Assembly: GCA_964621445.1 (NCBI GenBank)
Contig: CAZUNO010000003.1
Coordinates: forward strand, 64,001-128,000
Source of the DNA: Candidatus Hadarchaeota archaeon
Lineage (GTDB): Archaea; CAYQAE01; CAYVLA01
Direction: 5' to 3'
Length of the DNA stretch: 64,000 bases
The notes beneath the pieces were generated by a model. That model did no database searches, was not told where the DNA came from, and was given only the letters and a program-made list of their open reading frames with translations. Below, piece after piece: positions 6,440-6,745 of the stretch (positions are counted from its first letter, which is position 1; the number at the start of each line of letters is the position of its first letter). The position numbers were made by a program, and so were the translations under genes.

Positions 6440-6449
6440 GGAGGCGAGT

Positions 6450-6605
6450 TTAGACGAACCGGCAGCGACTCTTGCTTCCCAAAGGGTCTCCCACTTCAGT
6501 ACAACAAGCGACGCTGGCCTGCTTAACTTCCGGGTTCGGATTTCTCCTTCCTTAAATCAGAAGTATGAGACCGGGTGTTGCCAGGCCGCTATGGCCGCCG
6601 GCTCG
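6450..6605 (-). rRNA. rrf: 5S rRNA (solitary), interrupted by a 24-nt insertion
   Basis: Minus strand reads GAGCCGGCGGCCAUAGCGGCCUGGCAACACCCGGUCUCAU-[24 nt]-UCCGAACCCGGAAGUUAAGCAGGCCAGCG...GUACUG...GGGAA...GCUGCCGGUUC. Helix I (11 bp) and the conserved 5S motifs are present. Ends are set by the predicted BHB cuts. Confidence 0.95.
6541..6564 (-). other. Putative BHB-type intron in 5S rRNA loop C
   Basis: CGG-UCUC-AUA-CUUCU...GGAAG-GAGA-AAU-CCG forms a strict hBHBh' motif; removing it restores the 13-nt loop C UCUCAUUCCGAAC. Confidence 0.85.
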
Positions 6606-6637
6606 GTGTCCCTCGCCCCTTCATCTATTTAAGCTAG

Positions 6638-6647: not shown

Positions 6648-6745
6648 GTAATTCCAATTCGCATAGATTCGGGGTTATTGATATATCAGTCCTTAGGAAA
6701 AATGAGTAAGACAGATAAATAGAGGTACAAATCACGCGAAACAAG

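Follow-up and report, generated by a model that had tools for sequence, protein, structure and literature searches.

A predicted bulge-helix-bulge intron in loop C of the only 5S rRNA gene of a Candidatus Hadarchaeota genome

Introns and insertions known from archaeal rRNA genes

Small bulge-helix-bulge (BHB) introns are known in archaeal 16S and 23S rRNA genes, both in the Thermoproteales and in others. The splicing endonuclease EndA cuts such precursors after the second nucleotide of each bulge. In archaeal tRNA and rRNA splicing this leaves a 2',3'-cyclic phosphate and a 5'-OH at the BHB, and RtcB ligates the two ends. One form of the endonuclease, the epsilon2 enzyme of ARMAN-2, is described in the available text of Fujishima et al. 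(2011, PMC3239211) as a three-unit protein of 387 aa that cuts strict as well as relaxed BHB motifs, and enzymes of this type are said there to co-occur with heavily interrupted tRNA genes.

For 5S rRNA, a published intron was not found in the literature searched, a body that excludes most subscription journals, which agrees with the preliminary description of this locus, whose author likewise knew of no spliced 5S rRNA intron. The closest treatment is the survey of Stepanov and Fox (2021, PMC7812874), the accessible text of which lists 17 insertion sites in prokaryotic 5S rRNA, with a single archaeal site at 104.1–105. In bacteria, loop-C inserts at positions 34–37 occupy the least obstructed sites, and only positions 42–43 are regarded there as blocked by uL5 (PMC7812874). 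The expansions described in this text "lack noticeable complementarity to the core", and all but one spare the conserved motifs; the inserts are retained in the RNA, as shown for Halococcus morrhuae and Thermoanaerobacterium (PMC7812874). The same text cautions that unverified 5S inserts might be excised, the excision of intervening sequences being a possibility (PMC7812874). Four further sources were available in part. In the accessible passages of Schwarz et al. (2020), 5S rRNA figures solely as a loading control and, in introductory remarks, as a tRNase Z substrate; Qi et al. (2023) attribute the maturation of Methanococcus maripaludis 5S rRNA to A/U-rich motifs and not to a BHB. According to the accessible portion of a 2024 CPR study, 5S inserts reaching 100 bp were not found, and 5S introns are unmentioned in the accessible parts of a 2026 preprint on Nanobdellota.

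The 5S rRNA gene and its insert

The window, which is the whole stretch of 64,000 nucleotides that was analysed, belongs to a draft genome (G000) of 3.21 Mb in 89 contigs, with 96.2% completeness and 4.2% estimated contamination; hypersaline microbial mat samples contain the organism. The window encodes a full-length 5S rRNA gene on the minus strand, identified by a match to RF00001 over model positions 1–120 (90.8 bits, E = 3.1e-18) that lies above the gathering cut-off of 38 bits. The gene and its flanking elements are as follows.

6457–6602, minus strand: 5S rRNA gene including the insert, 146 nt; RF00001 match, the only 5S in the genome
6639–6652, minus strand: A/T-rich box ATTACATTTTTAAT, 37–50 nt upstream of the mature 5' end (flanks compared by eye)
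6612–6617, minus strand: leader strand GGCGAG of a putative leader-trailer stem, pairing with 6443–6448
6443–6448, minus strand: trailer strand CUCGCC of the putative leader-trailer stem, pairing with 6612–6617

The sole departure of this gene from RF00001 is in loop C, where 26 unaligned bases stand against two consensus positions. In spite of the insert, the gene outscores most uninterrupted archaeal 5S genes among the matches listed. The RF00001 search of all contigs of G000 gave this single match, which answers, for a draft of 96.2% completeness, the question raised in the preliminary description of whether another 5S copy exists in the genome. The 16S and 23S genes are found together on another contig, apart from the 5S gene. 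The latter is flanked by plus-strand genes encoding a CDP-alcohol phosphatidyltransferase and a VIT1/rubrerythrin-like protein and is alone on the minus strand; tRNA genes were not found in the 64-kb window. By eye, the box ATTACATTTTTAAT is kept in the flanks of the 5S genes of three genomes (G000, G001, G002) and three metagenome contigs (L060, L068, L072), and partly in that of G003; it is a likely promoter. The leader-trailer stem is kept in the flanks of L012, L016, L021, L060, L068 and L072, and in G002 it reads GAAGAG/CUCUUC, which amounts to two compensatory pairs relative to GGCGAG/CUCGCC. Together the two elements look like the promoter and processing stem of a stand-alone 5S transcript.

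Within the gene, the parts of the insert and its surroundings are given below; RNA positions are obtained by subtracting the window coordinate from 6603.

6565–6602, minus strand: exon 1 (RNA 1–38) as given by the BHB register, 3' end ...GGUCUCAU
6571–6573, minus strand: 5' strand CGG of the outer helix (RNA 30–32), also the 5' strand of 5S helix III; 3 bp possible with 6537–6539
6567–6570, minus strand: exon strand UCUC of the central helix (RNA 33–36), part of loop C; pairs with GAGA at 6543–6546
6564–6566, minus strand: 5' bulge AUA (RNA 37–39); predicted cut after RNA 38
6541–6564, minus strand: predicted BHB intron, 24 nt (RNA 39–62), as delimited by cuts after the second base of each bulge
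6547–6563, minus strand: inner helix CUUCU/GGAAG (RNA 40–44 with 52–56) and loop GAUUUAA (RNA 45–51); formed in the minimum free energy (MFE) fold
6543–6546, minus strand: intron strand GAGA of the central helix (RNA 57–60); pairs with UCUC at 6567–6570
6540–6542, minus strand: 3' bulge AAU (RNA 61–63); predicted cut after RNA 62
6537–6539, minus strand: 3' strand CCG of the outer helix (RNA 64–66), conserved loop-C bases; 3 bp possible with 6571–6573
6457–6540, minus strand: exon 2 (RNA 63–146, 84 nt) as given by the BHB register, starting UCCGAAC

The 24-nt insert and the parts of an hBHBh' motif had been set out in the preliminary description, and both its sequence and its arithmetic are correct. 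The order of the motif along the two strands has the handedness of the archaeal BHB substrate in pre-tRNA, and the predicted cut positions follow from the EndA rule. The insertion site presumably lies at about 40/41 in standard 5S numbering, by our own count. Excision at these positions would give a product of 122 nt with the junction CAU^UCCGAAC and with a loop C that agrees with the Rfam consensus, also in length. An origin of the intron as a mobile copy of another locus was considered and ruled out, as no second copy is present in G000 at up to four mismatches.

Independent Logan contigs of X1 and X2, two runs of a single study of which X1 is possibly where this DNA comes from, contain the locus without any difference. 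Run X4, from a different study, contains a close relative with the insert that differs at loop base 6556. An insert-free joint was not seen in the Logan contigs of four runs. Of the six sequencing runs listed for this DNA, none is on record as RNA.

The BHB pattern by itself is common in this DNA. A loose scanner (G-U pairs allowed, inner helix of at least 5 bp, outer helix of at least 3 bp) found 46 patterns when both strands of the window were counted (128 kb), and the bare pattern was therefore rejected as significant in itself. One of these 46 chance-level patterns is located at 6649–6683 on the plus strand, opposite and just upstream of the 5S gene. Local thermodynamic stability was rejected as evidence as well, since the 51-nt region folds no more stably than its shuffles (z = -0.41), 60 of 200 of which are at least its equal. 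For the whole 146-nt RNA the fold is better than that of shuffles (z = -2.76). When the 24 inserted bases were shuffled 200,000 times, a 4-bp central helix accompanied by three or more inner pairs arose 278 times in the one register that yields a normal loop, and five or more inner pairs were reached in that register 36 times. What stands above chance is the register that restores the loop, not the motif alone.

The motif had been called a strict hBHBh', which holds at the level of the sequence but not for the predicted ground state. In ViennaRNA, the outer helix CGG/CCG costs 3.9 kcal/mol relative to 5S helix III and has a pair probability of 0.002. The ground-state fold retains helix III together with the 5-bp inner helix, and the preference for helix III places the 3' bulge and its predicted cut site within a 9-nt unpaired stretch.

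Relatives of the insert and the splicing machinery

The phylum-level lineage to which G000 belongs is represented by five genomes (G000–G004). Each of them encodes one 5S gene, with lengths of 146, 148, 148, 149 and 158 nt, and all five carry an insert of 24–36 nt at the same site in loop C. A survey of 151 archaeal genomes gave a 5S match in 145; among the 150 matches listed, beyond which there are 25 weaker ones, these five genes are the only ones that exceed 125 nt. Under the best explanation of the data, the intron is old and vertically inherited, because it is present in every sampled member of the lineage.

Additional inserts were sought with pattern scans using the fixed flanks CCCG..YYCAT and CCGAAC.CGGAAG around a gap of 12–42 nt, which cover loop-C introns with those flanks. 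With one genome per species, the scan returned ten stretches. Three are relatives of G000, two of which are labelled Candidatus Hadarchaeota archaeon and one uncultured Thermococci archaeon; two Woesearchaeota stretches and one from Aenigmatarchaeota, all of them DPANN archaea, have a loop-C insert, and three are spurious hits within 5S genes of normal length (117 nt). The tenth, an apparent loop-C insert of a Firmicutes MAG (L038:223-360), was rejected as a scaffolding artefact, being a duplicated loop-C segment joined by NN. The corresponding scan of metagenomes returned at least 120 stretches, most of which match by chance, either where an ordinary bacterial 5S gene has its 5' end or in coding DNA. 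Nineteen were picked by eye, and 13 of these hold a 5S gene: five near this clade (L060, L068, L072, L077, L091), the more distant L071, four other archaeal and three bacterial.

The 5S gene of L071 (L071:34-501, AGBK01000008.1) shares 87–91 of 122 exon positions with the clade. Its loop-C BHB intron measures 29 nt and includes an inner helix of 9 bp, and the gene is followed by two tRNA genes. The three bacterial 5S genes (L081:3812-3961, L099:22-189, L128:3966-4134) have a loop-C insert of about 40 nt without a BHB, and about ten similar contigs were observed. One of the three, L128, adjoins the 3' end of a bacterial 23S gene. The L081 gene contains a second, similar element of about 33 nt, located about 65 nt beyond the first.

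A BHB in the exact register giving CAU^NCCGAAC is found in 17 of the 18 archaeal loop-C inserts, the criteria being no more than one mismatch in the central helix, a pair of 3-nt bulges and four or more inner pairs; none of the three bacterial inserts has one. In the archaeal exception, L092, the central helix and the bulges are present and the inner helix is interrupted beside the bulge, so that it was missed by the scanner. The central helix contains an A.G mismatch in G004 and L071, and the outer helix is absent beside the bulge in four of the 17 cases (G004, L082, L035, L034). The two 3-nt bulges around a 4-bp helix are kept across inserts of 20–36 nt in unrelated lineages. In the ten clade sequences (five genomes and five metagenome contigs, nine of them distinct) the exons sum to exactly 122 nt in every case, with introns of 24, 26, 26, 26, 26, 26, 27, 27, 29 and 36 nt. 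The comparison of G000 with L072 is instructive at closer range: the exons are identical at 117 of 122 positions and the BHB core is the same, with the first six and the last ten or so intron bases kept, whereas the intron apex differs in both sequence and length. Such change at the apex with a kept core fits selection acting on the cut-site structure only.

In an alignment of 16 distinct sequences, 92.3% of the cells are paired, versus 42–59% when the partner is slid by one to three columns. Five of the 12 BHB pairs change on both sides across the alignment. The central helix is paired in 96.9% of its cells and includes one compensatory pair (U-A to C-G), and in the inner helix four of five pairs change on both sides across the relatives. 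None of 500 shuffles reached the observed pairing or covariation score, a control that overstates the support because the structure was taken from one aligned row and the rows are related. The presence of the same insertion with compensatory changes in related genomes, which the preliminary description had put forward as a check, is thereby observed.

Two genes for splicing endonucleases are encoded in G000 (PF01974, PF02778). The first, on contig C2 (L043:1468-2589, minus strand), encodes a two-unit, alpha2-like protein of 373 aa that aligns over its full length with the two-unit alpha2-type chains 1r0v, 2gjw and 3p1y (about 305–315 aa). The second (C9:28248-29768; L044:520-2043, plus strand) encodes a three-unit protein, residues 125–507 of which match 4fz2_A (395 aa) with an E-value of 4.6e-74; we take the protein data bank entry 4fz2 to be the three-unit enzyme of ARMAN-2. 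The real start of this 507-aa ORF is probably internal, because homology to relatives begins near residue 94. The three-unit enzyme is present in four of four genomes of the family, and EndA-like matches are present in all five genomes of the phylum, G004 having a single short one. As the outer helix is weak in G000 and absent beside the bulge in four relatives, the 5S substrate may be of the relaxed BHB kind, which would fit the presence of the three-unit enzyme. RtcB is also encoded (PF01139, 609 bits).

Aragorn predicts 42 tRNA genes in G000, 26 of them with an intron call; the calls are noisy, and six exceed 100 nt and are probably false. The other 20 introns are short (12–43 nt). A BHB that agrees with the called length was recovered for ten of these 20 under loose criteria. 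In five of the 20 the central helix is perfect and the bulges measure 3 nt; four of those five introns lie in the anticodon loop. Several tRNA genes are 100–128 nt in length and have the anticodon placed oddly by Aragorn, which suggests two introns or non-canonical intron positions. EndA and RtcB together with the many short tRNA introns indicate that the organism probably splices many short BHB introns from its tRNAs. Large introns are not apparent by length in the 16S (1515 nt) or 23S (3033 nt) genes of G000, and there are no inserts of more than 6 nt in 16S model positions 1 to about 720.

Interpretation and comparison with described systems

The 24 bases at 6541–6564 are best read as an archaeal protein-spliced BHB intron within the only 5S gene of the genome, vertically inherited, to which we assign a probability of roughly 0.75. 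This was also the reading of the preliminary description, and it gains support from the status of the gene as the only 5S copy, the insert in five of five genomes, the constant 122-nt exons, the covariation, and the presence of EndA and RtcB. The anatomy, conservation and covariation of the insert and the presence of the enzymes are observed directly; cleavage and ligation of the 5S precursor are predicted from them. In the precursor, the four loop-C bases UCUC would pair with GAGA of the intron, forming a central helix flanked by the two opposite-strand 3-nt bulges and the inner hairpin. EndA, in either its two-unit alpha2-like or its three-unit epsilon2-like form, would cut in both bulges, and RtcB would then join the exons. 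The expected products are a 122-nt 5S rRNA with a normal loop C and a 24-nt intron, linear or circular.

The strongest competing explanation is that the 24 bases are an expansion segment that stays in the mature 5S rRNA as an extra loop-C hairpin, in the manner of the bacterial expansions or of H. morrhuae. Retained inserts are reported in the accessible text of the 5S survey, with bacterial loop-C positions 34–37 as the least obstructed (PMC7812874). The bacterial genes with inserts of about 40 nt, including the one beside a 23S end, show that loop C can host extra RNA where no archaeal splicing system is present. The ground-state fold, moreover, keeps helix III and merely adds a bulged hairpin. 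The argument in the preliminary description that uL5 binding should suffer if the insert were retained is only partly sound: in bacteria positions 34–37 are given as the least obstructed and 42–43 alone as blocked by uL5 (PMC7812874, accessible text). The present site presumably falls at about 40/41. Against retention, the insert interrupts the conserved motif of loop C and forms base pairs with it (UCUC/GAGA), unlike the expansions described in that text, and the only archaeal site given there is not in loop C (PMC7812874). There is no reason why a simple extension of a hairpin should preserve the bulge-helix-bulge spacing across inserts of 20–36 nt, and the three bacterial inserts do not keep it. 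We consider retention unlikely.

In a second alternative, EndA or another nuclease removes the insert and the exons are not religated. The 5S rRNA would then work as a 38-nt and an 84-nt piece that stay associated through helices I to III, in the manner of fragmented rRNAs that have intervening sequences. The BHB anatomy would be the same as for a spliced intron, these helices could hold the halves together, and excision of intervening sequences is named as a possibility in the available survey text (PMC7812874). RtcB is encoded in G000, however, and the break would fall in a conserved protein-binding loop, which makes this explanation distinctly improbable. An assembly artefact, a pseudogene or a contaminant copy is barely credible, for while the genome is a draft in 89 contigs with 4.2% estimated contamination and the L038 insert did prove to be a scaffolding duplication with NN, the locus is identical in Logan contigs of two runs and near-identical in a further run from a different study, all five genomes and additional metagenome contigs are interrupted at this site, this 5S is the only one in G000 and scores above most uninterrupted archaeal 5S genes among the matches listed, and the A/T-rich upstream box and leader-trailer stem are conserved.

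If the intron is spliced, ribosome production in this lineage would depend on the tRNA-splicing enzymes, and the substrate range of EndA and RtcB would be wider. The 5S rRNA is the one rRNA without a reported intron in the literature searched, and the accessible text of the 2021 survey has none in archaeal loop C. A spliced intron of this kind would also explain why the 5S genes of such lineages may look oversized or escape annotation. The intron is fixed here, in that all sampled members of the phylum-level lineage, whose genomes are of ordinary size (2–4 Mb), carry it, which points to long-term vertical inheritance and not to sporadic gain in reduced DPANN genomes. A more ambitious proposal is that the intron is an obligatory and anciently fixed step of 5S biogenesis in the whole phylum, masking the protein-binding loop until EndA and RtcB act, so that the tRNA-splicing machinery would serve as a checkpoint for assembly of the 5S RNP and the large subunit; it would then also be the first spliced 5S intron known in any domain. 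This proposal is speculative and, although conceivable, we regard it as doubtful.

Among described systems, the 5S expansion segments share with this locus the presence of extra bases in an otherwise canonical 5S rRNA, as in the 108-nt insert of H. morrhuae and the bacterial loop-C examples (PMC7812874, accessible text). They are self-contained, show no noticeable complementarity to the core and mostly spare the conserved motifs, whereas the insert described here splits the loop-C motif, pairs with it through four of its bases and has BHB geometry. The ARMAN-2 epsilon2 system is similar in that the endonuclease on C9 matches 4fz2_A over nearly its full length and occurs with many interrupted tRNA genes. 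It differs in that G000 has 3.2 Mb and is not ultrasmall and that an alpha2-like enzyme is kept as well, and the action of the C9 enzyme on 5S rRNA is a prediction. The BHB introns of 16S and 23S genes are likewise non-coding, hairpin-forming elements of the protein-spliced type inside an rRNA gene, the splicing being predicted here, and they differ in residing in the two large rRNAs and not in 5S. With the BHB introns of archaeal tRNAs the insert shares the two opposite-strand 3-nt bulges, the 4-bp helix and a central-helix exon strand that is drawn from a conserved loop. G000 also encodes the enzymes that cut and join such introns, and at 24 nt the insert is as short as the tRNA introns predicted there (12–43 nt). 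The differences are the host, which is 5S rRNA, and the outer helix, which is limited to 3 bp and has a native helix of the 5S rRNA as its competitor. The element is thus most likely of a known kind, and its host RNA, the 5S rRNA, is new.
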